Shown here: positions 963 through 60,821 of the stretch, one piece after another
Layout of the letters: every line of letters begins with the position of its first letter
How positions within the stretch are numbered: position 1 is the first letter of the stretch
Assembly (NCBI GenBank): GCA_900315245.1
Contig: OMYJ01000002.1
Location: forward strand, 57,864 to 121,863
DNA: 64,000 bases
Direction of reading: 5' to 3'
Origin: an uncultured Bacteroidales bacterium
GTDB taxonomy: Bacteria > Bacteroidota > Bacteroidia > Bacteroidales > WCHB1-69
Made by a program: the position numbers and the translations under genes
The notes under the pieces: model-generated
The model's input: the letters and a program-made list of their open reading frames with translations, nothing else
Database searches by the model: none
What the model was told of the DNA's origin: nothing

Positions 963-990
963 TTCACAATTCACAATTCACAATTCAAAA
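963..990. repeat. tandem word repeat (TCACAAT x3) in divergent promoter region
   Basis: ttcacaattcacaattcacaattcaaaa read directly from the sequence. Confidence 0.8.
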
Positions 991-1054
991 GAAAGTATGT
1001 AAAACATGTAACATCCGACGAGGAATTTCGTTATAAAGAAAAATTGACTTAATT

Positions 1055-3328
1055 ATGAAGAAGATATTCGTGCTATATTTTTGTGTTCTAATATGCCTGA
1101 CCGGAATGGCGCAGATCCGGGCATATCAGCCTTGGGATTCAGCCACTGCCACTGGGCCTCTGAACTTCATGACTTTGGATGTACAAAACCACCCATACAT
1201 CAGGCTAAACTATAATGAAAGTTATAGCGTTGGCCCTGATAATTTTGAAAACTCTTCGGCCACAGGTCCAAACATCCATCACCAACTGATCACCACAAAT
1301 GGCTCTGATCCATGTCGATGCTTCAACACAACAGGTTCAACTTACATCCACGAGAATTACTTTCCGACCACTGACGTCATCACGAAGCCCAATGGAGCTC
1401 CTGTTGACACGGTCATCCGGTTGGGCAGCACAACTCAAAACAACAACTCCCAAATTGAATACTGGTTCTACCCTAAGGTCAGTGAAAGTACTTTGTTGGT
1501 TTGTTTCTCTTTTGCCGAAGAAGATGTGGATTATCACGATAAAGATGAGAATCCCCGTTTTTACATCGAGTTGTTAGACGGTCAGACCAATCAACTCATC
1601 CAAAGCGGCTATTATCCAACGGAAGCAGCTACTGTCGCCGGCAATCTAACACCTACCAATAACAATTGGTCGTACAGCCGTTTCCTCGCTGTACCTAGTG
1701 GGGAAAACAGCAATCAAGACCACTCTGTATGGTCTGATAACTTGCAATCCTTCGTTTACTATTGGGCATTTCCGCAAGCCACACCCACGACATTCCCCTA
1801 TCGTGAATGCCCTTCCAATCAGACTTCGGGTCAGTCATCCTATACGGTCAAATGGTTTGAGTACAAACCCATCGCCTTCAACTTGAGTTCCTACGCTGCC
1901 CAGCACAAATCTGTAAAATTACGGATCAGGGCAAAAGCTTGTGTGTATTTTGCCCATTGGAATTATGCCCTCTTTTACGCCAAGATGATTCCCAGTTCCA
2001 TCCATGTGGATGCCTGCGGTTCCGAGCCCATACACCTTTCCGTACCCAATGGTTTCTTGGAAGACGTCTATGAATGGCACTACGGTTTTGACTCCTTGGA
2101 TGCGACAACTCGACCTGAACTCCAAATCAACATCACCCCCGGCATTACCGGCACCGTCTATGATGTCATGATTGACCGCGATGTGCTTCTTTCCCAACCG
2201 GGAGGAAAATTATGGCCGTACTACTCCTGCAAGATGCGGTCCTACACAGGTGTCCCTTTCCTCTATGAGGCTGAAATCAAATCCTACTTTTTGGAGCCTA
2301 ACATCACCTTTAAGCAGAAATTCGACAATTGCGACTTTCGCGCCCAGCTTATCGACTCCAGCCGGATTTTCTCCGTGACCCCGCCCGGGCCGGGACAAAC
2401 TGAGGACGACACCACCTTCCAGCAGACCCACCACATCCAATGGTTTGTCAAAAACTATCAAACTTCGCAACCCAACAACGACCGTTTTGACTCCATCCCC
2501 AACCGATATGGCGACACCAGCTTCACTTACGTCTTCAATTATCCATATATAGACACTCTCACTGGTGAGGCCTTCATCAAAATTGTTATCCAAGACTCCC
2601 TGCAGAAGTGCATCAAAGACACCATAAAACGCATCCAGCTGGACTTGAAGGCCATCCGGGACACGCTTACATACGACACGATTTATACCTGCGAGGAAAA
2701 AATGCCATACGTGTTCGACAGAGCCTATTTCGGTGAAAACCAGATATGGAACAGCGAAGGCACGCGCCGCGTCACCTATAACGACACCGCCTGGAACGGC
2801 TGCGACAGCATCGTGGACGTCACCCTCATCGTCCGCAAACCCAAAGTGGAAATCACCTCCGACCCGGATTTCTGTGAGGCATTCTCCACCAACCTGACCG
2901 CCGAATGCGCGGAAACCGTGCTGCAGTATAAATGGGAGAACGGGGAGACCTCGCCCTCCATCACCATCGACGAGCCTGGGCGATATTCCGTCGAAATCAT
3001 CAACAAAGACAGCTGCAGCTCCACGGGAAGCATCGTCATCCCCGCCTGCAAACCTTATCTTAACCTGCCCAACTCCTTCTCGCCAAGCAACCAAGACGGC
3101 TTAAACGACTATTTCTACATTCCGCAGAGAAACCTCATCAAAGAACTGGAATTCACCGTCTTCAACCGCCATGGGGTAATGATCTATCACACCACCAACA
3201 AGGAGTTCGAATGGAACGGCACCGAAAATGGCAATCTGTTCATGGGTGCCACCTACAACTACATCCTCCGCATCGTCGATTACGAGGGAGTGGCCTCTGT
3301 ACACAAGGGGTCCGTCACGATTTTCTAA
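1055..3328 (+). CDS. large secreted protein with T9SS type B (gliding-motility-associated) C-terminal sorting domain
   Basis: 757 aa with signal peptide ...LTGMA|QIRAY. The C-terminus NSFSPSNQDGLNDYFYIP...FNRHGVMIY...EWNG...YNYILRIVDYEG matches the type B CTD pattern (P-N-x-F-[ST]-P-N-x-D-G-x-N-D). Confidence 0.85.
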   Translation: MKKIFVLYFCVLICLTGMAQIRAYQPWDSATATGPLNFMTLDVQNHPYIRLNYNESYSVGPDNFENSSATGPNIHHQLITTNGSDPCRCFNTTGSTYIHENYFPTTDVITKPNGAPVDTVIRLGSTTQNNNSQIEYWFYPKVSESTLLVCFSFAEEDVDYHDKDENPRFYIELLDGQTNQLIQSGYYPTEAATVAGNLTPTNNNWSYSRFLAVPSGENSNQDHSVWSDNLQSFVYYWAFPQATPTTFPYRECPSNQTSGQSSYTVKWFEYKPIAFNLSSYAAQHKSVKLRIRAKACVYFAHWNYALFYAKMIPSSIHVDACGSEPIHLSVPNGFLEDVYEWHYGFDSLDATTRPELQINITPGITGTVYDVMIDRDVLLSQPGGKLWPYYSCKMRSYTGVPFLYEAEIKSYFLEPNITFKQKFDNCDFRAQLIDSSRIFSVTPPGPGQTEDDTTFQQTHHIQWFVKNYQTSQPNNDRFDSIPNRYGDTSFTYVFNYPYIDTLTGEAFIKIVIQDSLQKCIKDTIKRIQLDLKAIRDTLTYDTIYTCEEKMPYVFDRAYFGENQIWNSEGTRRVTYNDTAWNGCDSIVDVTLIVRKPKVEITSDPDFCEAFSTNLTAECAETVLQYKWENGETSPSITIDEPGRYSVEIINKDSCSSTGSIVIPACKPYLNLPNSFSPSNQDGLNDYFYIPQRNLIKELEFTVFNRHGVMIYHTTNKEFEWNGTENGNLFMGATYNYILRIVDYEGVASVHKGSVTIF

Positions 3329-3362
3329 TTTGTGACTTGCAATATGAGATTGCGAAATGTAC

Positions 3363-3389
3363 GGGTGTCTGGACGGGCACCCTTTTTTT
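3363..3389 (+). terminator. rho-independent terminator
   Basis: Stem gggtgtc/ggcaccc (7 bp including one G-U) with a 6-nt loop, followed by T7. Confidence 0.7.
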
Positions 3390-3554
3390 GCGGTTCCGAG
3401 TGCCCTTGCGAGGCAAAAACGATACTGCCGTTTTTCAACCCTACTACGCTAACGAAAAAATAATATCTTTGCGGCACCGTTTTTGAACACGAGACTATAC
3501 ACCGTTCGCAAACCGTAAACCGTAAATCGCAAATCGTAATAAAAACCACCGAAT

Positions 3555-4526
3555 ATGAAAAAAACGTTTACATTAGTTATGCTTTTAGCGGGTTTCTTGG
3601 GCTTGACGGCCCAGAACACCATCTTGAACAGCGATTTTGAATTGTGGTCTTACGGGAAGCCCGTGGGATGGACCGTAGGGCTTCACGGAGACATCACCTC
3701 CATCGTGAACCTTCCCGTGGAGGTCAATTTCGGCACCCAGAGCAATGAAGCTCACTCGGGCAACTCGTCCGTAAAGTTAGTCTCTGGCGACTTCACGATA
3801 CCCTACACGCAGTTTAGCTTCAATCTGCCGGGGATCCTGCAAGCCGGGGAGTCGGAAGGGTTCTCCATTCCTCTGGAAAACATCATGAGCATCATCCAAG
3901 CCATCCAAGACACCACCGGCAACTCGGGTTTTGACCCTGAGAATCTGGCCTCCCTGTCATCGCTATTACAGCTTCTCTCCAAAGGCGTCCCCTGCTCCAC
4001 CGTCCCGGCATCGGTCACCGCTTGGGTGAAATACCAACCGCAAGAAGGCGACCAGCTCATGATGTTCGCCGTGGCGAAAAAAGAGGGTATGCCCATAAGC
4101 TACAACTATGGCATCTTCCAAACAGAAGATCCTGACGCTTACCAGAAAATCGGGATTGACCTTGACTCACCCAATGCGGAGTGCGACTCCATCATGATCA
4201 TCATCCTCTCCTCCACAACGATGAACAGCACTTCGGTTCTCTTTGTAGATGATATCGCTTTGGAATACAGCGGTGTAGGCATCCCCGAACTTGAAGATTT
4301 TGACGGGAGAATATACCCCAACCCGGCCTGCAACCAGTTATTCATCCAACCTGACAACGAGAATGTGTACGAATGGACCCTGACCGACATGTCAGGAAAA
4401 ATTCTCCAGACAGGCAAATCCTCCGGAAAAGCCATTCTTGACACAAGATCTTATGCCACAGGCATGTACCTGCTACAAATCAAGGCCGACAACAAAATCA
4501 GCACCCATAAGGTATCGATTCGATGA
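3555..4526 (+). CDS. secreted protein with T9SS type A (Por_Secre_tail) C-terminal sorting domain
   Basis: 323 aa with signal peptide ...GLTA|QNTIL. The C-terminus is IYPNPACNQLFIQ...GMYLLQIKADNKISTHKVSIR. Confidence 0.85.
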   Translation: MKKTFTLVMLLAGFLGLTAQNTILNSDFELWSYGKPVGWTVGLHGDITSIVNLPVEVNFGTQSNEAHSGNSSVKLVSGDFTIPYTQFSFNLPGILQAGESEGFSIPLENIMSIIQAIQDTTGNSGFDPENLASLSSLLQLLSKGVPCSTVPASVTAWVKYQPQEGDQLMMFAVAKKEGMPISYNYGIFQTEDPDAYQKIGIDLDSPNAECDSIMIIILSSTTMNSTSVLFVDDIALEYSGVGIPELEDFDGRIYPNPACNQLFIQPDNENVYEWTLTDMSGKILQTGKSSGKAILDTRSYATGMYLLQIKADNKISTHKVSIR

Positions 4527-5443
4527 CAACACCGCTGATTTGGCTCGCGCCGTTGCATGGGATCACTTCCTATACATTCAGAAACACCCTATGCCGTCAC
4601 TTTGGCGGCATAGATTGTTTTATGGCTCCTTTCCTGCCTGCACAGCCCGCCGGCAAGTACAGGAAGAAGGTCTGGCAGGATATTATCCCCGAAAACAACA
4701 CCGCCCTTCCCCTCGTTCCGCAACTGATGGGCAATCGTCCGGATCATTTTGTGGATACGACACAGATGCTGAACGAACAATTTGGTTACGAGCACTTTAA
4801 CATCAACATCGGATGTCCTTCGTCCCCTGTTGTGCGCCATACGCGCGGCTGCGGCCTGATGCCCCACCCTGACATCGTGGAGCAGATTGTGGCGGAAGTG
4901 ACAGGGAAAACGCCGTTCCGCATCTCCCTGAAAATGCGTCTCGGCCTGCACAATGCCAATGAGGGACGCAACCTGCTCACTCGCCTTAACGACTATCCGC
5001 TGGATTTTCTGGTCATCCATCCCCGATTGGGCGATGATCTGTACGAGGGAGTTCCCGATTGGGACACCTTCGCGGAGTTTTGCCAGCTGACGCAACACAA
5101 AATCGTCTATAGCGGAGACATTTTCACCGTGGAAGATTACAACAGGTTGGCTGAGCGATTCCCGCAAGTGTCGGCCTGGATGCTCGGTCGCGGATTGTTG
5201 CGGAATCCATTTTTGGCTGAAGAGATTAAAGGACAAGATATTGGCGACAAAAGAGAACGGTTCCTCAATTTCTATCAGGACTTTATCGAAAAACTGCTGC
5301 CCATCCGAGGCGAATCGGGCACCTTGGCCAATCTGAAAGAGTTATGGCACTATTTCGCAGTTTTCACCGGTTTATCAGAAGAAAAATTGCAGCAATTGTT
5401 ACGGATATGCGATTTACGGGAATTTGTGGCAGTTAGCAGTTAG
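4523..5443 (+). CDS. tRNA-dihydrouridine synthase (Dus) family flavoenzyme
   Basis: 306 aa with LAPLHGITS...FRN and NINIGCPS...GCGLM motifs typical of the Dus TIM barrel. ATGA start/stop overlap with the upstream gene. Confidence 0.75.
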   Translation: MTTPLIWLAPLHGITSYTFRNTLCRHFGGIDCFMAPFLPAQPAGKYRKKVWQDIIPENNTALPLVPQLMGNRPDHFVDTTQMLNEQFGYEHFNINIGCPSSPVVRHTRGCGLMPHPDIVEQIVAEVTGKTPFRISLKMRLGLHNANEGRNLLTRLNDYPLDFLVIHPRLGDDLYEGVPDWDTFAEFCQLTQHKIVYSGDIFTVEDYNRLAERFPQVSAWMLGRGLLRNPFLAEEIKGQDIGDKRERFLNFYQDFIEKLLPIRGESGTLANLKELWHYFAVFTGLSEEKLQQLLRICDLREFVAVSS

Positions 5444-5534
5444 TAGTTAGCAGTTGGTGTTCCCGAAATTTCCCATCTTATGTCTCTTATCTCACGTCAC
5501 ACGTTAGACGTCACACGTCTTACGTCACACGTCT
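5429..5534. repeat. two tandem word repeats (GCAGTTA-type x4; ACGTCACACGT x3 with AGACGT-cac-ACGTCT hairpin)
   Basis: gcagttagcagttagtagttagcagttgg overlaps the stop codon of the Dus gene. Further along is cacgtcacacgttagacgtcacacgtcttacgtcacacgtct. Confidence 0.8.
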
Positions 5535-9147: not shown

Positions 9148-9867
9148 ATGAAAAATCTTTCCGATTTTCCACCGAAGTTGTCGCCGAAAATGAAAATGGC
9201 CGATGCAATCAACCAGTATCACAGTCTGTTGACCGTTCTTCCACGTCTTAACATCCCTCTCGGATTCGGAGAGAAGAGCATTGAACAACTCTGTTCCGAA
9301 CACCACGTTTCGCTGCCCCTGTTCACCCTCATCAGCCGTGTCTATTGTCAGGAAGACTACTACCCGACGGCTAACGAGCTGCAACAGTGCCCCATGGCCG
9401 ACATCCTGCAATACCTCGTTTCTTCGCACAAGGACTATTTAGAGAACAAACTCCCGCACATCGAGCACCACCTCAACATTTTGTTGGAACCGATGGACCG
9501 GAAATACAGCACGTTGATCACCAACTTCTACGCAGAATTCCGCAAAGAGATGGAGAAGCATTTCCGTTACGAGGAAGAGGTGATTTTCCCTTACTTGCGG
9601 CAGATCCTCTCCGAACAGGAAGCCACCGAGTCCGCCACCTATCAGAAGAACACTTTCCATCAGCAGCATGACGACATTGAGGACACCCTCAACGATCTTT
9701 CCAATCTGTTGCTCAAGTACATACCCGCCGAAATTTCCCCCGTGGAGCGCGTCGATATGCTGTTAGACGTTTATGCCCTCTCCAATGACATTGCCAGACA
9801 TGCCATGATGGAAAACCGCATCTTAGTTCCGTATATCCAACTGTTAGAATCCAAACGCCATGACTAA
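9148..9867 (+). CDS. hemerythrin-like (HHE cation-binding) domain protein
   Basis: 239 aa with spaced His/Glu helices (H..Y....LP.IEHH, F..E...HF..EE..IFPY, QQHDDIED), as in the hemerythrin/RIC family. Confidence 0.6.
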   Translation: MKNLSDFPPKLSPKMKMADAINQYHSLLTVLPRLNIPLGFGEKSIEQLCSEHHVSLPLFTLISRVYCQEDYYPTANELQQCPMADILQYLVSSHKDYLENKLPHIEHHLNILLEPMDRKYSTLITNFYAEFRKEMEKHFRYEEEVIFPYLRQILSEQEATESATYQKNTFHQQHDDIEDTLNDLSNLLLKYIPAEISPVERVDMLLDVYALSNDIARHAMMENRILVPYIQLLESKRHD

Positions 9868-10450
9868 GATCGCCATCGCCGAACCCTCAATCATGCTGCG
9901 CATCGGACTAGAGCAGCTGCTCCGGGAGCTGCCCGACGCAGAGGTCGTCTTCTCCACCGACAACCTGGGTTCCCTATACGCGAGAATCAACGCTCTGCGC
10001 CCGGACATCCTGATTGTCAATCCGTTACTATACGACTACGCCAAACGCGCCACCATACGCGCCGAGTTTGACAGCCTGCCGAACCTGCGTCTCATCGGAT
10101 TGGTCACTTCTTACATCGAATCGCAGCACCAGCGGCAGTTCGCCGGCATCATTGAGCTCAACGACGACCTCCAGCGCATCAAATCCACCATCAACCAAGT
10201 GGTGAACACCATCCAATCCGACGGCGATGAACCCGACACCGACCCCCTCTCCGACCGCGAGAAAGAAGTACTCATCTGCCTCTCCAAAGGACTGAAAAAC
10301 AACGAAATTGCCGACACCCTCAACATCTCCGTCCACACCGTCATCACCCACCGCAAGAACATCGTCCGCAAAACCGGCATCAAATCCGTCGCGGCCCTCA
10401 CCGTCTATGCCATCCTGAACAACCTCATTGAAGAAAAAGACATTATCTAA
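9860..10450 (+). CDS. LuxR/FixJ-type HTH regulator with degenerate (pseudo-)receiver domain
   Basis: C-terminal LSDREKEVLICLSKGLKNNEIADTLNISVHTVITHRKNIVRKTGI is a GerE/LuxR HTH. The N-terminal receiver-like fold lacks the acidic pocket and phospho-acceptor Asp (IAIAEPS; PDILIVNP). ATGA overlap with the upstream gene. Confidence 0.85.
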   Translation: MTKIAIAEPSIMLRIGLEQLLRELPDAEVVFSTDNLGSLYARINALRPDILIVNPLLYDYAKRATIRAEFDSLPNLRLIGLVTSYIESQHQRQFAGIIELNDDLQRIKSTINQVVNTIQSDGDEPDTDPLSDREKEVLICLSKGLKNNEIADTLNISVHTVITHRKNIVRKTGIKSVAALTVYAILNNLIEEKDII

Positions 10451-10480
10451 TGTAGAATGTAGAATGAAGAATGTAGAATA
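10451..10480. repeat. tandem word repeat (TGTAGAA/TGAAGAA x4)
   Basis: tgtagaatgtagaatgaagaatgtagaata begins immediately after the stop codon. Confidence 0.8.
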
Positions 10481-10484
10481 ATAC

Positions 10485-10618
10485 GGTCGAAGGACCATTC
10501 CCCCCTTTAGGGGGGATGCCCGAAGGGCAGGGGGGTAAAACAACTTCCTTGAGCAGCCCCGAAGGGGCAAGACGCGCGAAGCGCTAATAACCCCACACAA
10601 GCGAAGCGCAGTGTGGGG
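10485..10618 (+). repeat. cluster of six short GC-rich hairpins with GAA(G)/TTTA loops
   Basis: ggtc-gaag-gacc (10485-10496); cccccc-ttta-gggggg (10500-10515); gccc-gaa-gggc (10518-10528); gcccc-gaa-ggggc (10556-10568); gcgc-gaa-gcgc (10574-10584); ccccacac-N12-gtgtgggg (10591-10618) enclosing GCGAAGC. Confidence 0.7.
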
Positions 10619-10644
10619 ACACCCCAAAAGAACACCCATCCACT

Positions 10645-12564
10645 ATGAACATAAAAGCCCTACTATCAACAATGCTGCTGTGCCTCGGCATGGCAGCCAC
10701 CGCGCAGGAGAACGACCCCTACGCCGGCTACGACCGCGTGACCCTCTACGACAGCATGACCGTGCGCATGGAGGAGAACGGCCTCAGCCACTATGTCAAC
10801 CACCAGCGTTACCGGATCTTGAGCGATGCCGGCGGGCGCGACTACAACACCGTCATCGTCGATTACGACCCCCTGTCAGCTTACTGCGAGATCCGCGACG
10901 TGGTCGTCTATCGCCACGACGGCACGGAGGAACACCCCGACTTCATGGTCTGCGACTATCCCGCCCCGGCTCACATGATCTACTGGGGCGCGCGACAGAA
11001 GATGGTCGCCCTCGGCCGCCTCGAACCCGGCGACGAGGTGGAGTTCCTCACCTACAAGAAGGGCTTCACCTACGCCCTGCTGCAAGGCGACGACCCCGAC
11101 GCGAAGTACATCCCGCCCATGCGCGGCCACTTCTACGATATCGTCCCCTTCTGGAACAGCCAACCCGTGAAGGAGAAAGTGTATCAGGTCAGCGTGCTGA
11201 CCAACAAGAACTTGCAGTACAAAATCTACAATGGTAACCTCAACGTGAAAACGAAGAAGGACGGCGACCGCACTATCTTCACCTTCGAGAACAAAGACTA
11301 TTTCCCGTTGAAAACCCCGCGCTACACGGTGGCGAGCAACGACATCGAGCCAAAAGTCATCGTGACCACCGCGAAAGACTGGGAAGCCAAGTCGATGTGG
11401 TTCTACGGCGTGAACGAGGACTTCGGCAGTTTCGAGGCCACACCGGAGATCCAAGCAAAGGTCGATGAGCTGCTGAAGCCGGCCAAGACCGAGAACGACA
11501 GCTTGGACATCCTCACGCACTGGGTGGCCGACAATGTGCGCTACTCCGGCATCTCCATGGGCGAAGGCGAGGGGTTCACGCTCCACAAGTGCGAGATGAC
11601 CTTCCGCGACCGTTGCGGCGTCTGCAAAGACAAAGCCGGAATGCTCATCGGCATGTTGCGGGCGGCCGGGTTCAAGGCCTACGCCGCGATGACGATGGCC
11701 GGCGAGCGTATCGAAGACATTCCCGCCGACCAGTTCAACCACTGCATCACGGTGGTGCAGCGACGCAACGGCAACTATCAACTCCTGGATCCCACGTGGG
11801 TGCCGGGCGTGCGCGGCGAACTGTGGTCCAGCGCGGAGCAGCAGCAGAACTACCTCATGGGACTCCCCAACGGCGCGAAGTTGGGACTCACGCCCGTTTC
11901 CGACCCGAAAAACCACTACGTCAGGATGACCGCTAACACGCAGGTCACCAAGAACGGCACGCTGAAGGGCACCGTCACCATCACCGCCGACCGGCAAAGT
12001 GACCGCACCGTGCGCGGTGTCTTCTACGGCTTCCGCACGGAATGGCAGCGCAGCGTGGAGGAGATGTTCTACCAAGAGTACCCCAACGCGAAGCTCAAGA
12101 GCGTGAAATACACCAGCGAAGACGACTACCTCAAGCAACCGGTAAAGATTACGTATTCGTTCGAGATCCCTGATTACGCAACCGTTACCGACAACGAGAT
12201 CATCGCCACGCCGTTCCTCGCCAACGGCTTCTACACCTTCGCCATGCGCCACCTCTACTACAACACGAGTCTCGAAAAGCGCGACTACCCCTTCACCGAC
12301 CGCTGCTCGCGCTACGTCGCCATCAGCGAAACGATGAAGGTGCCGTCGGGCTACACCCGCGTGAGCGCGCCCGAAGCACGACAATTCGTCACGCCAAGCA
12401 TCTCGTTCAAAGGCGGTTACACCATCGGCTACAACATGGTGACATTCAACGAAACCATCTCCCTCGGCAAACGCGTCTATGAGGCCTCCGAATGGCCCGC
12501 GTTCCGCAAAGCGGTGCAGTGCCAACGGGGGTACATGGGGAATCCCGTGGTGTTCGTTAAATAA
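10645..12564 (+). CDS. DUF3857-type secreted protein with transglutaminase-like cysteine protease core
   Basis: 639 aa with signal peptide ...MAATA|QENDP. RCGVCKDKAGMLIGMLRAAG ... FNHCITVV ... LLDPTW is a Cys-His-Asp transglutaminase-like triad pattern. Confidence 0.8.
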   Translation: MNIKALLSTMLLCLGMAATAQENDPYAGYDRVTLYDSMTVRMEENGLSHYVNHQRYRILSDAGGRDYNTVIVDYDPLSAYCEIRDVVVYRHDGTEEHPDFMVCDYPAPAHMIYWGARQKMVALGRLEPGDEVEFLTYKKGFTYALLQGDDPDAKYIPPMRGHFYDIVPFWNSQPVKEKVYQVSVLTNKNLQYKIYNGNLNVKTKKDGDRTIFTFENKDYFPLKTPRYTVASNDIEPKVIVTTAKDWEAKSMWFYGVNEDFGSFEATPEIQAKVDELLKPAKTENDSLDILTHWVADNVRYSGISMGEGEGFTLHKCEMTFRDRCGVCKDKAGMLIGMLRAAGFKAYAAMTMAGERIEDIPADQFNHCITVVQRRNGNYQLLDPTWVPGVRGELWSSAEQQQNYLMGLPNGAKLGLTPVSDPKNHYVRMTANTQVTKNGTLKGTVTITADRQSDRTVRGVFYGFRTEWQRSVEEMFYQEYPNAKLKSVKYTSEDDYLKQPVKITYSFEIPDYATVTDNEIIATPFLANGFYTFAMRHLYYNTSLEKRDYPFTDRCSRYVAISETMKVPSGYTRVSAPEARQFVTPSISFKGGYTIGYNMVTFNETISLGKRVYEASEWPAFRKAVQCQRGYMGNPVVFVK

Positions 12565-12689
12565 TTTTCATATAAATTATCAATAAACGCCAATGAATTC
12601 GCCAACAACCATGCTATCACCTCAACGAATTCAATAATTCATACATAATTCATGGCAAATTCATGATAATTCACGTTAAAAATACAATA

Positions 12690-16462: not shown

Positions 16463-16491
16463 GGGGCAAAAATACATTTTTTTGTGAATTG
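16463..16491 (-). promoter_or_regulatory. 29-nt promoter cassette copy 2
   Basis: Identical 29-mer, 28 nt upstream of ATG 16435. Confidence 0.6.
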
Positions 16492-16621
16492 TGATTAGTG
16501 AATTGACATAAACTTAAACAAAGACTTAAGACTATGACTTTTGCGGACAACAATAAAAACAAATCACTATTCACTATTCACAAAAATTAGTATCTTTGCT
16601 CGCTGATTCAAACTTCCGATT

Positions 16622-17743: not shown

Positions 17744-17763
17744 TAATTGATAATTGATAATTA
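17731..17763. repeat. tandem word repeat (AATTGATA x4) spanning the stop codon
   Basis: aattgataattgataattgataattgataatta. The same word occurs in the prophage at 60787-60821. Confidence 0.85.
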
Positions 17764-18651: not shown

Positions 18652-18690
18652 GATAGCCAAAAGCCAATAGCTAAAAGCCAAAAGCTATAA
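18652..18690. repeat. AGCYAAWA tract (family copy 2)
   Basis: gatagccaaaagccaatagctaaaagccaaaagctataa, directly after the SDR stop codon. Confidence 0.8.
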
Positions 18691-18741
18691 TCCAAACATG
18701 ACAATATTTTTACTATCTTTGCACCCTCAAAATCTGATACA

Positions 18742-22100: not shown

Positions 22101-22103
22101 TTT

Positions 22104-39798: not shown

Positions 39799-39831
39799 CC
39801 AATAACCCATAACCCATAACCTTTAAGAAAA

Positions 39832-40350: not shown

Positions 40351-40373
40351 GGGCGCGATTCATCGCGTCCGCA
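40346..40373. repeat. GC-rich hairpin, degenerate member of TGTAG...CA palindrome family
   Basis: tgtag-gggcgcgat-tca-tcgcgtcc-gca, sitting between the gam stop and the next start. Confidence 0.5.
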
Positions 40374-40392
40374 TTTTCCAAACACGATCGGT

Positions 40393-41168: not shown

Positions 41169-41244
41169 GCAATGCTGAATGCTGAATGCTGAATGTTGAA
41201 TATTGAATAAACAATTCACTAATCACTAATCACCAATCACAATT
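41169..41244. repeat. two tandem word repeats (ATGCTGA x4-5; AATCACT x4) running up to the ATG
   Basis: gcaatgctgaatgctgaatgctgaatgttgaatattgaataaacaattcactaatcactaatcaccaatcacaatt. Confidence 0.85.
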
Positions 41245-45159: not shown

Positions 45160-45192
45160 GGACAGGTCGCTGCCTGTCCTCAGAAGAAAAAA
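45160..45192 (-). promoter_or_regulatory. candidate -1 programmed ribosomal frameshift cassette at portal 3' end
   Basis: Minus strand: aaT_TTT_TTC ttc tga GGACAGG-cagcga-CCTGTCC. Heptamer at 45192-45186, 6-nt spacer, 7-bp stem at 45179-45160. The -1 frame is the MuF frame. Confidence 0.45.
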
Positions 45193-46493
45193 TTCTTCAG
45201 GCGGTTGAGCAGGTTGTTGGATCCGCGCCGGGGTCTGCCGGTTTCATCCTCCTTTAACGGGTTTTGCAACGGTGTTTCAAAGGGGGTGAAACTGTGCGCC
45301 ATGCGCAGCTCTTCCTTCAGCTCCTCGTAGTTGTCGGGCTTGGGGATGTCGAACTCCTCGTAGATGTAGTCGTCAGCGATGGGCAGCTTGTCGCTGATGG
45401 AGTTGAGCACGTCCCATTTGGTCTTCAGCTCGTTCCAGTCCTTGTCCGGGGACTGGTACCAAATGACGCCGCCGGTGACGTTGATGCCGAAGCGTTTGAG
45501 GATGGCGCGGAACCGGGTGTTGAGGATGGCCAAGATGAAACGTTTGTCGCTCTCGGTCTTCTCGTCTTCCACCTCCTTGTGGATTTCGCCCAAGGAGCGT
45601 GCGCCACGGTCGCCCTGTTCGGTGGTGAGGGTGTTGCCGAGGATAATCTTGGAGATGGAGGCGTCGCAGGCCTGGATGAGGCGGTCATACACCTCATTGC
45701 TGCCGGTGCTGCCGCCGGTCTCGTGGATCTTCAGCTCGGTGCTGCGCGGGTGGATGCTGTAGCCGGAACTGCCCCACTCCTGAAGCCCCTGTTCCAGTTT
45801 GGCGCGGGTGGCCTCGTCATAGTCGTCGTAGATCAGTTCGCGGAAGGGCATCCCGAACATCTCGGCAAACTGGCTCCAGTCGCCGAAACCGCCGCGTTTG
45901 TAGATGACGTACTGCGCCGCCTTCACAAACAGCCCTTTGTCGGTGGGGTCGCCCGCCCACAGCATATAGTTGGCCAAGGGGAGTTCCCTGTACAGCCAGT
46001 CTTTCGACACCAATGACTGCTGGCGGCTCACGCACTCGAATCCCTCCTCCGGATGCACGTGCTTGCGGGGTATGAGGTCGTAGTCGATCTTGTAGGTCTC
46101 CTCGTCCTCGTCGTACCACACATTGTTCACCTGGATGAGCGTGTAGCCCCAGGCGATGCTGTTGTGCAGGTCGCGGATAAGCAGGCGCATATCGGGCGAG
46201 TTGAGCAGGGAGGAGATTTCCTCGTCCTCCACGCCGTCGCGCACGAACACCAGCTCTTTGTTGAGCACCGCGTCCTGGCGTTTGCCCCAGGTGGCCTCGA
46301 TCTGCCCGTCGAGCAGGATGTCGTCGTAGAGGTCATATAGGTAGGTGCGGTTGGGATTGGTGATGTTCTCGAACGCCCGGATGGCGTTCTTCCAGTTCTC
46401 AATGTCCTGCGTGTTGTGCGGGGCGTTGTGGATCTGGATGTTCTGCACTATGATGTTGTCGGGGGTCTTCCCCTGTTTTCTTTTTACAGCCAT
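45180..46493 (-). CDS. portal protein (Mu gp29 / DUF935 family)
   Basis: 437 aa. IENWKNAIRAFENITNPNR..LYDLYDD.LLDG.I....KR resembles the DUF935 N-terminus. The gene follows the terminase. Confidence 0.8.
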   Translation of the reverse strand: MAVKRKQGKTPDNIIVQNIQIHNAPHNTQDIENWKNAIRAFENITNPNRTYLYDLYDDILLDGQIEATWGKRQDAVLNKELVFVRDGVEDEEISSLLNSPDMRLLIRDLHNSIAWGYTLIQVNNVWYDEDEETYKIDYDLIPRKHVHPEEGFECVSRQQSLVSKDWLYRELPLANYMLWAGDPTDKGLFVKAAQYVIYKRGGFGDWSQFAEMFGMPFRELIYDDYDEATRAKLEQGLQEWGSSGYSIHPRSTELKIHETGGSTGSNEVYDRLIQACDASISKIILGNTLTTEQGDRGARSLGEIHKEVEDEKTESDKRFILAILNTRFRAILKRFGINVTGGVIWYQSPDKDWNELKTKWDVLNSISDKLPIADDYIYEEFDIPKPDNYEELKEELRMAHSFTPFETPLQNPLKEDETGRPRRGSNNLLNRLKNFFF

Positions 46494-52032: not shown

Positions 52033-52446
52033 ATGCCGACACCAAGAGGAATACGGAACAACAACCCGCTGAACATCCGGCACAGCCGGGACCGCTTCCA
52101 GGGCGAAGTGGTCCCGAGCCGTGACGGGGCGTTCAAGCAGTTCAGCAGCATGGCTTACGGCTACCGTGCCGCGTTCGTGACACTGGCCACCTACCTGGCC
52201 CACGGACGCAACACGGTGGAGAAGATTATCCGTGCGTGGGCGCCTCCCACAGAGAACAACACCGAGGGCTACATCGCCCACGTGGTGCAACGCAGTGGCG
52301 TGGGACGCAACAAGGTGCTCACGGCGGAATCCGGCGGCGACTACCGCAAGATAGTCGCTGCCATGAGCCACTGCGAGAACGGCATCCCGGCTAACATGGC
52401 CGACGTGGAGGCGGGGTTCCGGATGCAGAGCAAAATTAGAAATTAG
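52033..52446 (+). CDS. conserved phage protein with RNNNPLNIR motif (possible virion or cell-wall-active protein)
   Basis: 137 aa. GIRNNNPLNIRHS...F.G......F..F....YGYRA....L..Y...G.NT...II..WAP..EN.T..Y. Confidence 0.55.
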   Translation: MPTPRGIRNNNPLNIRHSRDRFQGEVVPSRDGAFKQFSSMAYGYRAAFVTLATYLAHGRNTVEKIIRAWAPPTENNTEGYIAHVVQRSGVGRNKVLTAESGGDYRKIVAAMSHCENGIPANMADVEAGFRMQSKIRN

Positions 52447-52465
52447 TAATTAGAAATTAGTAATT
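52433..52465. repeat. tandem word repeat (TTAGAAATTAGTAA x2) spanning stop and next start
   Basis: aaaattagaaattagtaattagaaattagtaatt followed by ATG. Confidence 0.85.
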
Positions 52466-52816
52466 ATGTGGGAGATGATTTTCACTTCGCTGGGAGGCAC
52501 GTTCCTGGGTACGTTCTTCGGCTGGTTCTTCGGCCGGAAACGCCAGAACATCGACACCATCGACGCGGCTGTGGAGACCTGGAAGAAGATCGTGGACTCG
52601 CTGCAGGAGCAGATCGACCGCCTGTTGGAGCAAAGAGCCTCCGACGCGGCCAAGATAGAGTCGCTGTCTGAACAGGTGAAGCAGCAGAACGCGCACATCG
52701 AGGAGCTGAAGGAACAGGTTTCATCGATGGAGCTGAAGGTGAAGAGTGTGAACCATCTGGAGAAGACCATCGCCCGCTACGAGAAACTGTTGGACGCTAA
52801 CGGAATCGAATATTAA
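52466..52816 (+). CDS. N-terminal TM + coiled-coil protein (holin/spanin-like by architecture)
   Basis: MWEMIFTSLGGTFLGTFFGWFFG, then a heptad-rich helix; 116 aa. Confidence 0.5.
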   Translation: MWEMIFTSLGGTFLGTFFGWFFGRKRQNIDTIDAAVETWKKIVDSLQEQIDRLLEQRASDAAKIESLSEQVKQQNAHIEELKEQVSSMELKVKSVNHLEKTIARYEKLLDANGIEY

Positions 52817-56023: not shown

Positions 56024-58018
56024 ATGGCAACCAACAACACGGTAAATTTCACCATCAATTTCAACGGCAACGCCTACAACGGTGTTGTGCAGTTGAGTAA
56101 TGCTGTGAACCAAGTGTTGAACCCAGCGGTCAAAGAGACTACATCACTCTTTGAAAAAGTTGGCAACGCCTGTTTTCTGTTGAACAGTATCTTTGATATG
56201 GTGGGCCGCACCGTCGGCTGGGTTGTGGGCAAGCTGTCGGAGTTTGAGCAGGCGGGCCGCGCCCAAGCGGAGGCGGAGACGAAACTGGCGCAGGTGATGC
56301 GAAACACCATGGGAGCCGCGTCGGACGAGCTGGACACGATACGAGAACTGGCTGCCGCCCAACAGAAGATTGGCGTGATCGGCGACGAAATCCAGATTGC
56401 CGGGGCGCAGGAGCTTGCCAGGAATGTGACGCAGTTCTCCACGCTGGAGAAACTCATCCCGGTGATGAACGACCTGACGGCGCAGCAGCAGGGCTACAAC
56501 GCCACACAGGAGGGTGCCGTGGGCAACGCCCGGATGCTGGGACGCGCCCTGCAGGGCAACATCATGCTGCTGGAACGAAGCGGCTACCAGTTCACCGAGG
56601 CGCAGAAGCGGGTGATGAAGACTGGCGACGAAGCGCAGAAGGCCGCCGTGCTGGCGGAGGTTCTCTCTCAAAAGGTGGGCGGTGTGAACGAGGCTTTGGC
56701 CAACACCCCGGAGGGGCGCGTGGTGCAGCTCAACAACGCCTACGGTGACCTACAGGAACGCCTTGGCGGGCTGTGGGCGAATCTCAAGGATTCCCTCTTC
56801 CCGGTGTTCGACGGTCTGATCCAACGCGCCGACGGCCTCATCGATGTGATCGAGGAGAAGATCGGGGCGGCGAAGGAATGGATTGCCGGGGCGGTGGCGT
56901 GGCTTTCCGACGTGTGGAACGGCATCAAGGAGCCGGTGATGAACACGGTGTCGAGCCTGTGGACCTCGCTGAGGACCATTGTGGGCAACATTGTGAACTC
57001 CATCGCAGGCATCGTGCGCAACAACATCACGCTGATACGCGGCATAGTGGGTGCCATCGGCTGGACGATACGCACTGTGGGCAACGTACTGGCATGGGTG
57101 TCGGGACTGGTGACGGGGTTTGTGAACTTCCTGAGCGGGGCGGCGCCGATAGTGCTGGGCTTCGCGGGGGCTTACGGAATCCTGACATTGGCCACCAAGG
57201 CGCAGGCCATCGAGCAGAGCATCTTGAACGGCGCAACCATGCTGGGCGTGGGCATCGGCAAACTGTTGGGCGGAACCATCGCGTTTGTGAACGCGGTGAT
57301 GGCCGCCAATCCGGTGTACTGGATCATTGCGGGGATTGTCGCCCTGGCGGGAGTGATCACATTCCTCGCCATCAAGGTGAAGGGCTGGGGCACGCTGTGG
57401 GAGGCGGTGGTAAACTTCGCCAAACACACGTTCACGGCGTTCACCTACCTTGTGCAGCAGAAGTGGAACGTGATGATCAACGGACTGATGATAGGCCTCG
57501 ACAAAATCAAGGAGGCCTGGTACAAGTTCCGCAAGGCGGTGGGCATCGGCGACGAAAGCGAGAACGACGCCGCTTTGGCGAAGATCGCACAAGATGTGAA
57601 AGCCCGGCAGGAGAAAATCGCCGCCGGGAGCAAACTGGTAAGGGATGAGCTGAAGGCCGCCCGCGACTCGTGGAAGGGTGTGGATCTGAAGTGGGACAAG
57701 AAAGTGACCGCCAAGGATGCCGTGGCCAAAATCAAGGCGGATCTGGGCATCACCGACCAGAGCGCGGTGACGAACATCGTGAACGACCAGAGCAGCGGCG
57801 ACACCGAATTGAACAACGAGCTGTCGGACGCCTCTACCAAGATTTCGAGCGGTGGAAAAAACATCAAGAACATCAACATCACCATCAACGACGGGCTGGT
57901 GCACGGGGTGCAGAACTACTTCAACGGCAGCGACGACAATCCGGAGAGCGCATCGGACTTCATGTGGCGTCTGGCCAACGCCCTGCAGCTCGTTGTAAAC
58001 GATGTGAACTATGATTAG
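56024..58018 (+). CDS. tail tape measure protein
   Basis: 664 aa. N-terminal helical region, central Gly/Ala/Ile-rich TM-like segments, and position after the chaperones. Confidence 0.85.
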   Translation: MATNNTVNFTINFNGNAYNGVVQLSNAVNQVLNPAVKETTSLFEKVGNACFLLNSIFDMVGRTVGWVVGKLSEFEQAGRAQAEAETKLAQVMRNTMGAASDELDTIRELAAAQQKIGVIGDEIQIAGAQELARNVTQFSTLEKLIPVMNDLTAQQQGYNATQEGAVGNARMLGRALQGNIMLLERSGYQFTEAQKRVMKTGDEAQKAAVLAEVLSQKVGGVNEALANTPEGRVVQLNNAYGDLQERLGGLWANLKDSLFPVFDGLIQRADGLIDVIEEKIGAAKEWIAGAVAWLSDVWNGIKEPVMNTVSSLWTSLRTIVGNIVNSIAGIVRNNITLIRGIVGAIGWTIRTVGNVLAWVSGLVTGFVNFLSGAAPIVLGFAGAYGILTLATKAQAIEQSILNGATMLGVGIGKLLGGTIAFVNAVMAANPVYWIIAGIVALAGVITFLAIKVKGWGTLWEAVVNFAKHTFTAFTYLVQQKWNVMINGLMIGLDKIKEAWYKFRKAVGIGDESENDAALAKIAQDVKARQEKIAAGSKLVRDELKAARDSWKGVDLKWDKKVTAKDAVAKIKADLGITDQSAVTNIVNDQSSGDTELNNELSDASTKISSGGKNIKNINITINDGLVHGVQNYFNGSDDNPESASDFMWRLANALQLVVNDVNYD

Positions 58019-58041
58019 TAATTAGTGATTTGTGAATTGAT

Positions 58042-59030: not shown

Positions 59031-60026
59031 ATGTTGACCTTGAAATGCCAGATAGAAATCCGCAGCAAAAGTACGAAAAAAACCGTACGGTTCGACTATG
59101 CGAACAGCATTGAGGTCAAGACATCGTGCAACAGCCTGACGGACACGGCGGTGCTGAAGCTGCCCCGCAAGATGAGCTGGCGGGGGAAACCGCTGACGGA
59201 CTATGTGCGCCGCAATGACGGCATCACCATCCGGGCGGGCTACGCGGAACACGGCCTTGAAACGCTGTTTCAGGGCTATGTGAAGGACGTTGAAAACGGG
59301 CGGCCGGTGGTGATCACCTGCGAGAACGAGATGCGCCGCCTGAAAGGGGTCACCGTGGAACCGGAGATCATCCCCAATTTCGACATCCGCGCCTTCATGC
59401 GCCGCTACGCCCCGGACATCCGGGTGGCCGGACCCGCCAGGATGGACTTCGGCACCGTGACCGTGGAGCGGCAGAGCCTGGCGCATTTCTTGGACGGGCT
59501 CACAAGCAAGTTCAAATGGTTCCGGGCGTTTTTCCGGGACGGCGTGTTTGTGGCCCTCTTCGACCCGGACGGGCTGGATGACGTGAAGGTCGTCTCCCTC
59601 GATCCCACACGGAACATTATCAGCGACTCGCTGAAATACACCCTTGCGGAGGACGTGAAGGTGTGCGTGAAGGCCACTTCCATTCAGGAAGACAACACCA
59701 AGATAGAGGTGACGGTACCGGTGGAAGCGGAGGCCAACCCGTCGGAGTATGAGCAGCGGCATTTCCTGCTTCCGGGCTACAGCAACGCCGCCTCGCTGAA
59801 AGAGGCTGCCGAAAAGACCCTTGCGGAATACAAGACCGACAAAATGGAAGGCACGCTGACCCTGTTCGGCATCCCCTTTGTGCGCAAAGGCGACGTGGTG
59901 CGGCTGACCGACAAAGACCGTCCGGAGCGCGACGGGAAACGGTTCCGCATTGATGCGGTGACATACAGCTTCGGTACCGGCGGCTACCGCCAGGAGGTGA
60001 CGTTAGGGAAAAGAGTTAGAATTTAG
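59031..60026 (+). CDS. baseplate hub / late control gpD-like protein (Mu gpP-like)
   Basis: 331 aa. L.LP........L...V...D.I.I..GY........F.GYV pattern, plus position. Confidence 0.55.
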   Translation: MLTLKCQIEIRSKSTKKTVRFDYANSIEVKTSCNSLTDTAVLKLPRKMSWRGKPLTDYVRRNDGITIRAGYAEHGLETLFQGYVKDVENGRPVVITCENEMRRLKGVTVEPEIIPNFDIRAFMRRYAPDIRVAGPARMDFGTVTVERQSLAHFLDGLTSKFKWFRAFFRDGVFVALFDPDGLDDVKVVSLDPTRNIISDSLKYTLAEDVKVCVKATSIQEDNTKIEVTVPVEAEANPSEYEQRHFLLPGYSNAASLKEAAEKTLAEYKTDKMEGTLTLFGIPFVRKGDVVRLTDKDRPERDGKRFRIDAVTYSFGTGGYRQEVTLGKRVRI

Positions 60027-60031
60027 CGGTT

Positions 60032-60529
60032 ATGGACGACATACATAAGATAAAGGATTGTTTGCGGGAATTGGCGGGAGGTGCGCCGATCGAGACGGAG
60101 GTGGCGAAGGTTCTCTCCGTGGACGGCGCGGTGTGCAAGGTTTCCCGTGTGCGCGACGGGATGGTGATCGACAGGGTTCGCCTGAACGCCATCAGCACGG
60201 CGGACAAAGGAATTGTGGTTACCCCCAAGACCGGAACGTATGTGCTGGTTTCCCGCCTCGGCGAGGTCAACTGGTTCGTGACCCTCTGCGGCGAGGTGGA
60301 GAAAATCTCCATCGACGCGGAGGCGGACATTGTGATCAACAGGGGCGGATATGGCGGTCTGATTAGAATTGAGGATTTGGTGGGAGCGATTAACCGATTG
60401 GTGGAGGTATTCAACAGCCATACACATACAGTGGTCGAGGCTGTCGCCAAGTCGCCAGAATTACAAATGCAACGATTAAATAGAAACGATATTGAAAACA
60501 CTCATATAAAACACGGAGACCCACAATGA
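60032..60529 (+). CDS. baseplate spike/assembly protein V-like
   Basis: 165 aa. The N-terminal OB-like segment VAKVLSVDGAVCKVSRVRDGMVIDRVRLNAI. Called by gene order. Confidence 0.5.
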   Translation: MDDIHKIKDCLRELAGGAPIETEVAKVLSVDGAVCKVSRVRDGMVIDRVRLNAISTADKGIVVTPKTGTYVLVSRLGEVNWFVTLCGEVEKISIDAEADIVINRGGYGGLIRIEDLVGAINRLVEVFNSHTHTVVEAVAKSPELQMQRLNRNDIENTHIKHGDPQ

Positions 60530-60810
60530 ACGGCATACTGACAGACGACAACGGAGACCTGATCATCACCAGCGGCCACGTGACGGTGGGCGACAACCGC
60601 GAGCAGTGCGCCCGGCATCTGATAACCGCCTGGACGGGCGAATACAAGCACGCCCCCATGCTGGGCGGCAATGTCAGGCGGATGATCGCCGGCGGCCACG
60701 ACCCTTTCTGGGCGGGCCGGATGAAGGAGCAGCTGAAACAGTGCCACATTTCGGTAGAACACTTGCGGGTGAAGGAAGGGAACGTTGAATTGATAATTGA
60801 TAATGGATAA
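60526..60810 (+). CDS. baseplate wedge W/gp25-like small protein (tentative)
   Basis: 94 aa with ATGA overlap. The C-terminal codons are supplied by the AATTGATA repeat. Confidence 0.4.
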   Translation: MNGILTDDNGDLIITSGHVTVGDNREQCARHLITAWTGEYKHAPMLGGNVRRMIAGGHDPFWAGRMKEQLKQCHISVEHLRVKEGNVELIIDNG

Positions 60811-60821
60811 TTGATAATTGA
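60787..60821. repeat. tandem word repeat (AATTGATA x4) spanning stop codon; same word as host locus 17731
   Basis: gaattgataattgataatggataattgataattgac. Confidence 0.85.

Follow-up and report, generated by a model that had tools for sequence, protein, structure and literature searches.

The locus

We study a stretch of 64,000 nucleotides from contig OMYJ01000002.1 (GenBank assembly GCA_900315245.1), which we call the window. Its left part is chromosomal DNA of an uncultured Bacteroidales bacterium from the cattle rumen, and its right part is a Mu-like transposable prophage. Between the genes of both parts lie tandem arrays of short words, nearly always seven nucleotides long, and it is the origin of these arrays that concerns us here. 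The initial annotation of the window had described them as AT-rich words of 7-10 nt, placed against start and stop codons in almost every intergenic gap and drawn from a vocabulary shared by host and prophage. The coordinates of the arrays, and of the other features mentioned below, are collected in Table 1.

The host belongs to the Bacteroidales, as indicated by the C-terminal domains of type IX secretion (T9SS) on several large proteins of the window. Its Tex protein shares 96% identity with the one encoded by the metagenome-assembled genome (MAG) RUG13189 (locus L001) and 89% with the one encoded by RUG11592 (locus L002). At the DNA level, L001 and the window are 86-96% identical; their colinear DNA spans position 12242 to the end of a tRNA-Ser gene at 32271, and ceases there. 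The host does without Shine-Dalgarno (SD) sequences, as had been supposed: an SD-like 4-mer at positions -20 to -5 precedes none of 25 host genes (and 6 of 44 phage genes), and the leaders are 41% A and only 11-18% G, with peaks of A at -13 to -11 and at -3. The -7 promoter box of Bacteroidota, TAnnTTTG, is enriched in the window (42 matches, 26 expected).

In addition to the genes listed in Table 1, the prophage encodes Mu F, terminase, protease, major head, sheath, tape-measure and baseplate proteins. A relative of its Gam protein is encoded on 161 stretches in IMG/VR, so that the prophage belongs to a large family of related phages.

Abundance and unit length of the arrays

Arrays were called with Tandem Repeats Finder (TRF), and the gene boundaries used throughout are those of our own approximate gene model. 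At a TRF score of at least 40 we find 22 arrays, in 16 of the 54 gaps of at least 15 nt. When the same gaps are shuffled 100 times with their composition preserved, the mean number of arrays is 0.35 and the maximum is 3. Similarly, there are 8 exact runs of period 7, compared with none in 50 local shuffles. Thus the density of repeats exceeds what base composition predicts, and TRF and reading of the sequence place a tandem array at every locus that had been listed.

For measures of occupancy we use a curated list of 27 arrays, which includes those with TRF scores of 30-39. According to this list, arrays occupy 14 of the 22 host gaps and 23% of the host's intergenic bases; in the prophage they occupy 5 of 32 gaps and 6% of intergenic bases, about a quarter of the host's level. 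The description of arrays in almost every gap is roughly right for the host, therefore, and wrong for the prophage. More than 15 different words are in use. Array DNA is richer in A and T than other intergenic DNA, and the two have similar strand skews (A>T, C>G).

The period of the arrays is strikingly uniform. A detector applied in the same way to all periods finds 16 arrays of period 7 in the window, one of period 10, and none of period 5, 6, 8, 9 or 11. In 80 related Mu-like phage loci (893 kb) there are 31 arrays of period 7, 14 of period 8, and at most 2 of any other period. The unit is thus not 7-10 nt, but almost always 7 nt (or 14 or 21): the array at 17731 that had been written as four copies of AATTGATA, for example, reads as 4.6 copies of AATTGAT. 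The real exceptions are the 10-mer at 31193 and the irregular array at 12634. With head-to-tail units of 5-11 nt beyond chance expectation, among which heptanucleotides predominate, the arrays have the properties of long simple-sequence repeats (SSRs).

Position relative to genes and promoters

All arrays of period 7, 14 or 21 are either intergenic or cover the terminal codons of a gene and no more. Those within genes are weak, and their periods are 6, 8, 9, 10, 12 or 15, mostly multiples of three. About 12 of the 27 arrays begin in or just past a stop codon, about 11 have their end no more than 20 nt from a start codon, and several precede promoters. The proximity to coding boundaries is not simply a matter of short gaps: among the 20 arrays in gaps of 95 nt or more, 11 fall within 12 nt of a boundary, compared with an expectation of 4.4 (P=0.0008). 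The arrays do, then, adjoin stops and starts, and the C-terminal tails RIDN*, LIIDNG* and VAVSS* are array-encoded, both as had been claimed.

On the sense strand, 23 of 32 units contain a stop codon (18.3 expected, P=0.023), an excess that the seeding of arrays on stop codons explains. The units show no avoidance of ATG. The genes that flank arrays are housekeeping genes (tex, mutL, a short-chain dehydrogenase/reductase, an ABC ATPase) or genes for phage structure and morphogenesis.

With respect to transcription units the placement is mixed. The arrays before tex, mutL and the gene at 31249, and all five prophage arrays, are intercistronic within operons, with no -7 box in the gap. Those at 5490, 16482, 16564, 18653, 26214 and 32013 lie upstream of -7 boxes, and the one at 3510 lies in a 5' untranslated region (UTR). 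Such a mixture argues against any single function at the level of RNA.

We also considered a promoter role of the sigma-70 type, and rejected it. The AATTGAT array at 17733-17761 contains the region's best match to such a promoter (TTGATA and GATAAT separated by 17 nt; 10 of 12 positions), which we take as a coincidence produced by the 7-nt periodicity (23 equals 2 modulo 7), given that Bacteroidota use TAnnTTTG and that these boxes lie outside the arrays. The match is probably meaningless in Bacteroidota, but it could matter wherever array-bearing hosts use sigma-70-type promoters.

Variation among strains and related phages

Comparison of the window with L001 and with other strains reveals arrays at several stages of change. 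The arrays at 16564, 18653, 22103-22170 and 32013-32090 are retained in L001, and the last of these is invariant across 5 strains. The array at 16482 has one extra 7-nt unit in L001, within surroundings that are 97% identical. The array at 26214 is absent from L001, which has an unrelated heptamer array instead, and in the gap at 31066 L001 carries GACGTAA/GACTTAA and TGAAACC heptamer arrays rather than the 10-mer; the 10-mer itself is present in 4.5 copies in the window and 2.5 in another strain. L001 is likewise unrelated in sequence in the gap 12564-12663. Finally, at the junction at 17743, where the window has a 137-nt spacer composed of three arrays, the two genes overlap by ATGA in L001, with the seed GAATTGA at the stop.

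The slot upstream of mutL has four alleles, whose words are related, among strains whose upstream 80-aa protein is identical. The 99-nt allele of the window holds a CAGGTTT/ACCTGAA hairpin; a 92-nt allele has one CAGGTTT unit fewer; a 43-nt allele has a single-stranded array of four RAACYTT units; and the allele of L001 has 7.7 copies of CCTTAAC. The slot upstream of tex is occupied in the window, L001, L002, L023 and L024, and in L002 it holds six copies of CTGTTRG without a second arm.

The prophage slots behave in the same manner. The slot at 41168, which precedes the gene at 41245, measures 76, 69 or 62 nt among contigs whose downstream protein is identical; in distant phages it has 12 nt and no array (L092, L093) or four copies of GATTTGC (L088). 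These exact 7-nt steps between identical flanking proteins, like those before mutL (99/92 nt), bear out the earlier suggestion that slippage generates the spacers. The array at 39793 is identical in phage L089, while slot 52433 carries six copies of GAATNNN in phage L081. The array at 58012, 23 nt in the window, has no counterpart in L081 and L229, whose junction reads TGATATG; in L227 and L228 the units of this slot (58012/58018) have been homogenised to three copies of TGAATTG with no change in length. L081 also lacks the array at 60788; the seed GAATTGAG is present there, and the tail reads ELSIKN*. That is, close relatives of the phage lack several arrays that the prophage has, which agrees with the proposal that a genome-wide process of the host also acts on the phage.

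In one contig (L224, positions 1-38; Logan SRR16020869) an ACCCATA/ACCAATA array precedes a gene 100% identical to window positions 41245-41601. The window has this word family at slot 39793, 1.4 kb from there. Such a difference in slot between related phages suggests either that one array was copied to another or that the DNA between the two was deleted.

Hairpins and recurring words

At four host loci (16466-16599, 22103-22170, 29108-29172 and 32013-32090) adjacent arrays form reverse-complementary pairs, and the eight longest inverted repeats of the window are all array hairpins. Their predicted folds have z-scores of -3.8 to -5.5 relative to shuffles: -3.8 at 16466-16599, -4.0 at 32013-32090, -4.1 at 22103 (-30.8 kcal/mol) and -5.5 at 29108 (-36.1 kcal/mol). 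The hairpin upstream of mutL grew in place, because its right arm is homologous to older arrays and its left arm varies by single units; the left arm is a new inverted copy of the right. The hairpins are not flagged as intrinsic terminators and lack T-runs, and terminator-like sites in the window (23) are about as numerous as in shuffles (21.9). In a search of Rfam only two tRNAs reach the gathering score, and at E<=1 no credible hit falls on an array.

Words recur among the arrays more often than expected. There are 7 pairs of arrays with identical words (0.64 expected), of which three include a prophage array and one, AATTGAT, joins host and phage. The notion of a shared vocabulary is correct, therefore, in that words recur across loci; as to sharing between host and phage, the 4 cross pairs found at no more than one mismatch are what chance provides (3.65 expected, P=0.5). 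Nor is AATTGAT a special viral word. Three perfect copies of it occur in 49 IMG/VR contigs, and those of two composition-matched controls in 42 (AATATGT) and 64 (AATAGTT). Both AATTGAT arrays of the window are traceable to a pre-existing local GAATTGA.

One of the main families of words is AGCYAAW, found at 175, 18653, 22103-22170 and 32013-32090, with 13 matches to the pattern compared with 0.01 expected. Between the hairpins at 22103 and 32013 there is 75-80% similarity, which comes from the repeated word that they share. Other families are TTCACAA/TCACTAT and CAGGTTT/AAACCTG, the latter including the small hairpin at 28601. We rejected the idea that AGCYAAW is a pan-Bacteroidota element: among 81 sequences it occurs in the window, in L001, and weakly in Aquimarina. 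In the marine flavobacterium Aquimarina agarilytica (L051), TTRGCTA/TAGCYAA forms intergenic hairpins at 1320-1385, 3257-3346 and 9690-9763, which may reflect either convergence or an element shared with the window's family. Two unrelated IMG/VR contigs, L189 (6543-7074 and 10360-10557) and L203 (1075-3332), carry arrays of the AATTGAT/AATGGAC type at up to 1.3 per kb, including inverted pairs.

Other elements in the window

The left end of the prophage has two sets of 11-nt repeats that are distinct from the heptamers. One of them, at 32949, had been grouped with the other arrays, a grouping that does not survive: its period is 11, and the array (32935-32979) is 100% identical in phage L087, in which the flanks diverge by about 7%. 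The repeats at 32602 and 32935 are probably not slippage arrays but sites for transposase binding at the phage end, operators, or other phage regulatory sites.

The gap following gam (40351-40392) is highly plastic. The window and L088 have a GC-rich hairpin there (GGGCGCGATTCATCGCGTCC); L089 alone has a heptamer array, of four TTGATAA/TGGATAA units; L092 has 3 nt; and L087 (8519-8730) and L093 (6416-6517) have an insert that resembles the 3' half of a tRNA.

On the host side, the DUF3857 gene at 10645 is preceded by a GC-rich element of some 130-160 nt that looks structured (10483-10640; CGGTCGAAGGACCATTCCCCCCTTTAGGGGGGATGCCCGAAGGGCAGGGGGG...). L001 has this element too (347-450), before a paralogous DUF3857 gene, a position at which AT-rich repeats stand in the window; it could be a small mobile element or RNA element. 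The open reading frame (ORF) of 80 aa before mutL (28859-29101) matches no Pfam family, yet it is 100% conserved in many rumen assemblies (84 listed blocks) despite a 2-5% divergence of the flanking DNA.

Table 1. Positions of the arrays and other features in the window. Copy numbers follow the word; the strand is that on which the feature is read.
Feature	Position	Strand	Context
Host chromosome, uncultured rumen Bacteroidales	1-32271		cattle rumen
AGCCAAA/AGCTAAT-type, period 7/21	175-214		3' end of minus-strand gene 212-904; called by TRF; fits AGCYAAW
TTCACAA x3.6, copies 100% identical	963-987		divergent gap 904/1055; same word as 16482, opposite strand
AAACCGT x4.3	3510-3539	+	16 nt before ATG at 3555; 3' of -7 box TATCTTTG at 3464; in 5' UTR
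GCAGTTA x3.9	5429-5455	+	covers stop of gene 4523-5443; encodes ...VAVSS*
CACGTCA x5.9 (alternatively 14-mer x3.2)	5490-5534	+	precedes -7 boxes at 5544 and 5563
AATGTAG x4.4	10449-10479	+	begins at stop of gene 9860-10450
Weak 12-mer repeat	12563-12587	+	stop edge of gap 12564-12663
Irregular AATTCAT-type repeat, spacing 8-11 nt	12634-12673	+	start edge of gap 12564-12663
Divergent promoter region, imperfect palindrome with 40-nt arms	16466-16599		each arm has a TAnnTTTG -7 box and a heptamer array
TTGTGAA x3.4	16482-16505		one arm of palindrome 16466-16599
TCACTAT x2.6	16564-16581		other arm of palindrome 16466-16599
AATTGAT x4.6	from 17731	+	first part of 137-nt spacer; covers stop; encodes ...RIDN*
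16-mer x2, then TCCAAAG-type heptamers x~5.6	to 17871	+	rest of 137-nt spacer; ends 9 nt before ATG at 17880
AGCCAAA/AGCTAAA x6	18653-18696	+	3 nt past stop of gene 17880-18650; upstream of -7 box at 18714
TTRGCTA x5 and AAAGCYA x4.6, continuous	22103-22170	+	fills gap from stop at 22100 to tex ATG at 22173; left and right halves nearly reverse-complementary, form a hairpin
AACTTA(G) x4.8	26214-26243		between two minus-strand genes
Small hairpin GGTTTCAAGTTTC...GAAACCTGAAAC	28601-28637		CAGGTTT/AAACCTG words as at 29108-29172
CAGGTTT x3.9 and exact reverse complement ACCTGAA x4.4	29108-29198	+	gap between 80-aa ORF and mutL
Decayed TAACCWTTT relic	within 29108-29198	+	3' of hairpin arms; ends 3 nt before mutL ATG
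AATTCGTGAT x4.5, perfect 10-mer	31193-31237	+	12 nt before ATG at 31249
TTAGCTA/TTGGCTA x3.9 and TAAAAGC x5	32013-32090	+	hairpin; begins in stop of gene 31249-32016; precedes tRNA-Ser promoter box at 32166
Mu-like transposable prophage	~32600-64000		continues past right end of window
11-nt repeats TGAATTTTGCC x3.4	32602-32638	+	prophage left end; separate from heptamers; more copies at ~32655 and 32779
11-nt repeats ACAGACTTACA x4	32935-32979	+	prophage left end; separate from heptamers
S24 repressor	33221-33862	-	prophage
MuA-like transposase	34182-36317		prophage
MuB-like protein	36353-37225		prophage
CAATAAC/CCATAAC x4.1	39793-39821	+	prophage; from stop of gene 39340-39798 to 11 nt before gam ATG
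Gam	39832-40350		prophage
10.5 contiguous heptamers drifting from AATGCTG to AATCACT	41171-41240	+	prophage; make up 76-nt gap
Mu-type portal	45180-46493	-	prophage
AAATTAG x4.9	52433-52466	+	prophage; from stop of gene 52033-52446 to ATG at 52466
TGATTAG x3.4	58012-58035	+	prophage; from tape-measure stop to next ATG
AATTGAT x4.9	60788-60821	+	prophage; covers end of gene 60526-60810; encodes ...LIIDNG*

Relation to known repeats

Dispersed heptamers of several word families are not new. Mazel et al. reportedly described in 1990 the cyanobacterial short tandemly repeated repetitive (STRR) heptamers, which are said to form intergenic tandem arrays with several word families per genome. The window's arrays share these features, but the STRR words (e.g. 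CCCCAGT) are absent and the taxon is a different one, Bacteroidales. A cyanobacterial origin of the window can be rejected, since the HIP1 sequence occurs once (1.65 expected), and the T9SS domains and the nearest MAGs are those of Bacteroidales.

According to the account of Mrazek, Guo and Shah (2007) given in PMC4679880, heptanucleotides outnumber every other class of long SSR in the majority of the surveyed genomes, with slippage as the proposed source. As far as that account extends, the present arrays resemble those SSRs in their head-to-tail 7-nt units beyond chance, in their mostly non-coding location, and in the tolerance of multiple-of-three units within genes. They differ in the many AT-rich words found in one genome, in the 23% of host intergenic bases that they occupy, in their extension to a Mu-like prophage, in their births from overlapping junctions, and in the inverted pairs that produce hairpins.

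A second precedent is the TAACTGA direct repeat, which occurs in intergenic regions of Beggiatoaceae, cyanobacteria and five Bacteroidetes and reaches 169 sets in a single genome (MacGregor 2015, PMC4679880); the same paper notes other heptamers in Gramella, Aequorivita and Elizabethkingia. These too are heptamer direct repeats in which strains differ mostly by indels in 7-nt increments; their sets of 2-6 copies lie mostly a few nt upstream of start codons and in forward orientation (PMC4679880). TAACTGA repeats have one dominant word, unlike the window with its more than 15, and neither the window nor L001 has any tandem TAACTGA. A relative, the Bacteroidales MAG L003 from water-buffalo cecum (17184-17293), has 15.7 copies of (C/T)AACTGA following four of TAACTCC; long TAACTGA arrays have been described for some Bacteroidetes (MacGregor 2015, PMC4679880).

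In Haemophilus influenzae, 7-bp repeats between promoter and start codon of hmw1A and hmw2A vary in copy number by slippage and thereby tune expression (PMC8262952, PMC12721329). Unlike these and other contingency loci, the arrays studied here lie outside reading frames, next to housekeeping and phage genes, and are not limited to genes for surface or virulence functions. Our literature search found no paper on such arrays in rumen Bacteroidales or in Mu-like phages; it returned MacGregor (2015) and general papers on SSRs. The arrays of the window thus belong to the known class of heptanucleotide SSRs, to which they add an unusually full set of evolutionary intermediates and a variant that forms hairpins.

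The origin of the arrays

We think it likely that the arrays are heptanucleotide SSRs made by slipped-strand mispairing and tolerated outside reading frames. During replication, both of the host chromosome and of the Mu-like prophage that the host replicates, strands would mispair in a 7-nt register and so duplicate a short local sequence, typically the last bases of a gene together with its stop codon at a tight or overlapping junction. The resulting array would then gain and lose whole units, be homogenised, decay by point mutation, and be overwritten by new arrays; some arrays would acquire an inverted copy and hence become long hairpins. An in-frame array of 7-nt units would shift the reading frame, so that the survivors would be found between genes or in last codons, abutting stops and starts. 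The arrays are restricted to non-coding DNA, in other words, because 7 is not a multiple of 3.

Much of this sequence of events can be read directly from the alleles described above: the units are specifically 7 nt long, the arrays keep to non-coding DNA, lengths differ by whole units, words turn over, and arrays are born from minimal junctions. That most arrays are tolerated rather than selected is a further step, which we infer. As for the 7-nt register, its molecular cause is probably that loops of such size escape mismatch repair. Loops larger than about 4 nt escape MutS; the prevailing units would then be the shortest ones able both to evade repair and to re-anneal stably. A contact of the polymerase with 7 nt of DNA has also been proposed as the cause of the register (Mrazek 2007, as reported in PMC4679880).

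Slippage of this kind also provides the simplest reading of the prophage, which is that the phage was exposed to the host's process during its residence. Since the prophage's occupancy is about a quarter of the host's, and its relatives lack arrays, the arrays would have been acquired while the prophage was resident in the host lineage.

Several observations weigh against slippage followed by tolerance. Generic slippage does not by itself explain so strong a preference for 7 nt over 5, 6 or 8. The preference for gap edges, which persists even in long gaps, is not obviously predicted by a purely neutral process, unless the long gaps are themselves built from old arrays. None of the 5 convergent gaps contains an array, a deficit that is not significant with so few gaps. 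For pairs of reverse-complementary arrays a further event must be assumed, be it template switching or selection for pairing. Separate loci have identical words in common more often than chance allows. Finally, some slots stay filled over deep divergence while their words change, namely that of tex in the window, L001, L002, L023 and L024, and that of mutL in all strains seen.

Some of these observations would be expected if the arrays were selected spacers between cistrons and at sites of initiation, where AT-rich, G-poor, weakly folding arrays would supply an unstructured landing zone for the 30S subunit or uncouple adjacent cistrons, and copy number would serve as a tuning knob. Slippage would then provide the variation alone, and persistence and placement would be due to selection. 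We regard this explanation as possible but unlikely. It suits a host that does not use SD sequences and has A-rich leaders, and a translational role has indeed been proposed for TAACTGA repeats just before start codons (MacGregor 2015, PMC4679880). Many arrays end 0-16 nt before an ATG, with the last bases before the ATG kept; arrays prefer gap edges; slots remain occupied though their words change; and at one phage slot (41168) two unrelated arrays were born independently. Start regions that bear arrays are, moreover, less GC-rich than others and fold less on average (-2.9 versus -5.8 kcal/mol), but this difference in folding is not significant (P=0.086). If a spacer were needed, it is also hard to see why the same gene pairs in relatives make do with gaps of 1-12 nt or an ATGA overlap, and strong hairpins located 3 nt (tex) or 29 nt (mutL) before the ATG should hinder initiation rather than favor it. 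Many arrays adjoin a stop with the next start far off, or precede promoters, and the units do not avoid ATG. The selected, unstructured initiation regions that the initial annotation had offered as one interpretation are likewise possible but unlikely.

The hairpins raise a different possibility: that hairpin arrays and recurring words (AGCYAAW, CAGGTTT/AAACCTG, TTCACAA) form a dispersed family, akin to repetitive extragenic palindromes (REPs) or to MITEs (miniature transposable elements with inverted repeats), which spreads by recombination or transposition and acts through RNA hairpins as terminators, stabilisers or processing sites. The REP elements of enterobacteria, and the bacterial interspersed mosaic elements (BIMEs) that they compose, are dispersed, imperfectly palindromic and intergenic, and often lie right past stop codons. 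The hairpin subset of the window's arrays has all of these properties, several hairpins being directly 3' of stops, but its arms are tandem heptamers, its words vary by locus, and the one slot whose history can be traced, that of mutL, grew in place. In favor of a mobile family one may cite the fact that the longest inverted repeats of the window are all array hairpins of marked stability, the resemblance between the hairpins at 22103 and 32013, the excess of AGCYAAW at four loci, the comparable hairpins at three loci of Aquimarina, and the appearance of the CCATAAC word in two different slots of related phages. However, there are no terminal inverted repeats, target duplications or transposases (including the REP-associated RAYT type) for such a family in the 64-kb window, and the flanks of family members are alike in the repeated word only. 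Of 80 other Bacteroidota loci, 78 have no AGCYAAW arrays; no Rfam family matches, and the hairpins lack both T-runs and terminator calls. We consider this explanation improbable.

A more elaborate proposal combines selection with a dedicated source of arrays. The arrays would constitute a selected, self-renewing system of spacers in Bacteroidota without SD sequences and in their phages, in which a 7-nt-specific mechanism makes intergenic DNA at stop-start junctions, copy number and hairpins tune translational coupling and transcript processing gene by gene, and preferred words are reused. The occupancy of slots, the placement at edges, the families of words and the repeated births at a single slot are compatible with this proposal, which we nonetheless judge distinctly improbable.

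It is very improbable that a regulator of host or phage recognises the heptamer arrays as tandem, sequence-specific binding sites in DNA or RNA. One locus looks suggestive, in that WAATCAC/TTCACAA arrays are arranged symmetrically upstream of both -7 boxes of the divergent promoter and share a stretch of 15 identical nucleotides with the prophage, and the conserved 11-nt repeats at 32602 and 32935 are probably binding sites of some kind. But binding arrays, which had also been suggested, are unlikely because words differ among slots, and differ at one slot among strains or close relatives whose flanking genes are identical; this turnover already largely refutes the idea. In addition, more than 15 words are in use, copy number is not conserved, and a spacing of 7 bp would set successive sites on different faces of the helix. 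The last alternative, an artefact of assembly or sequencing, might be feared of a contig from a short-read metagenome assembly (ENA ERZ931332 contig k127_770338, PRJEB21624), but its chances are negligible, since the same arrays, identical or differing by whole units, recur in assemblies made independently, from other samples and by other pipelines (ENA, JGI, Logan, IMG/VR and GenBank MAGs).

Significance

To our knowledge, heptanucleotide tandem repeats have been recognised in bacteria since 1990, and we know of no established function for them, nor of an established reason for the 7-nt unit. The window and its public variants constitute a natural time series, in which we see junctions without spacers, newborn arrays seeded on stop codons, steps of single units, homogenisation, decay and replacement, and hairpins. 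Two practical points follow for those who work with such genomes. The arrays can be used as hypervariable markers of strains, and they are a hazard for gene calling, because they rewrite C-terminal tails and start sites.

For the bacterium itself, about a quarter of its intergenic DNA in the window has been made by the array process, and its resident Mu-like prophage has been remodelled likewise. The birth of non-coding DNA between genes, the role of spacer length in translation without SD sequences, and the origin of the 7-nt register are thereby all made testable.

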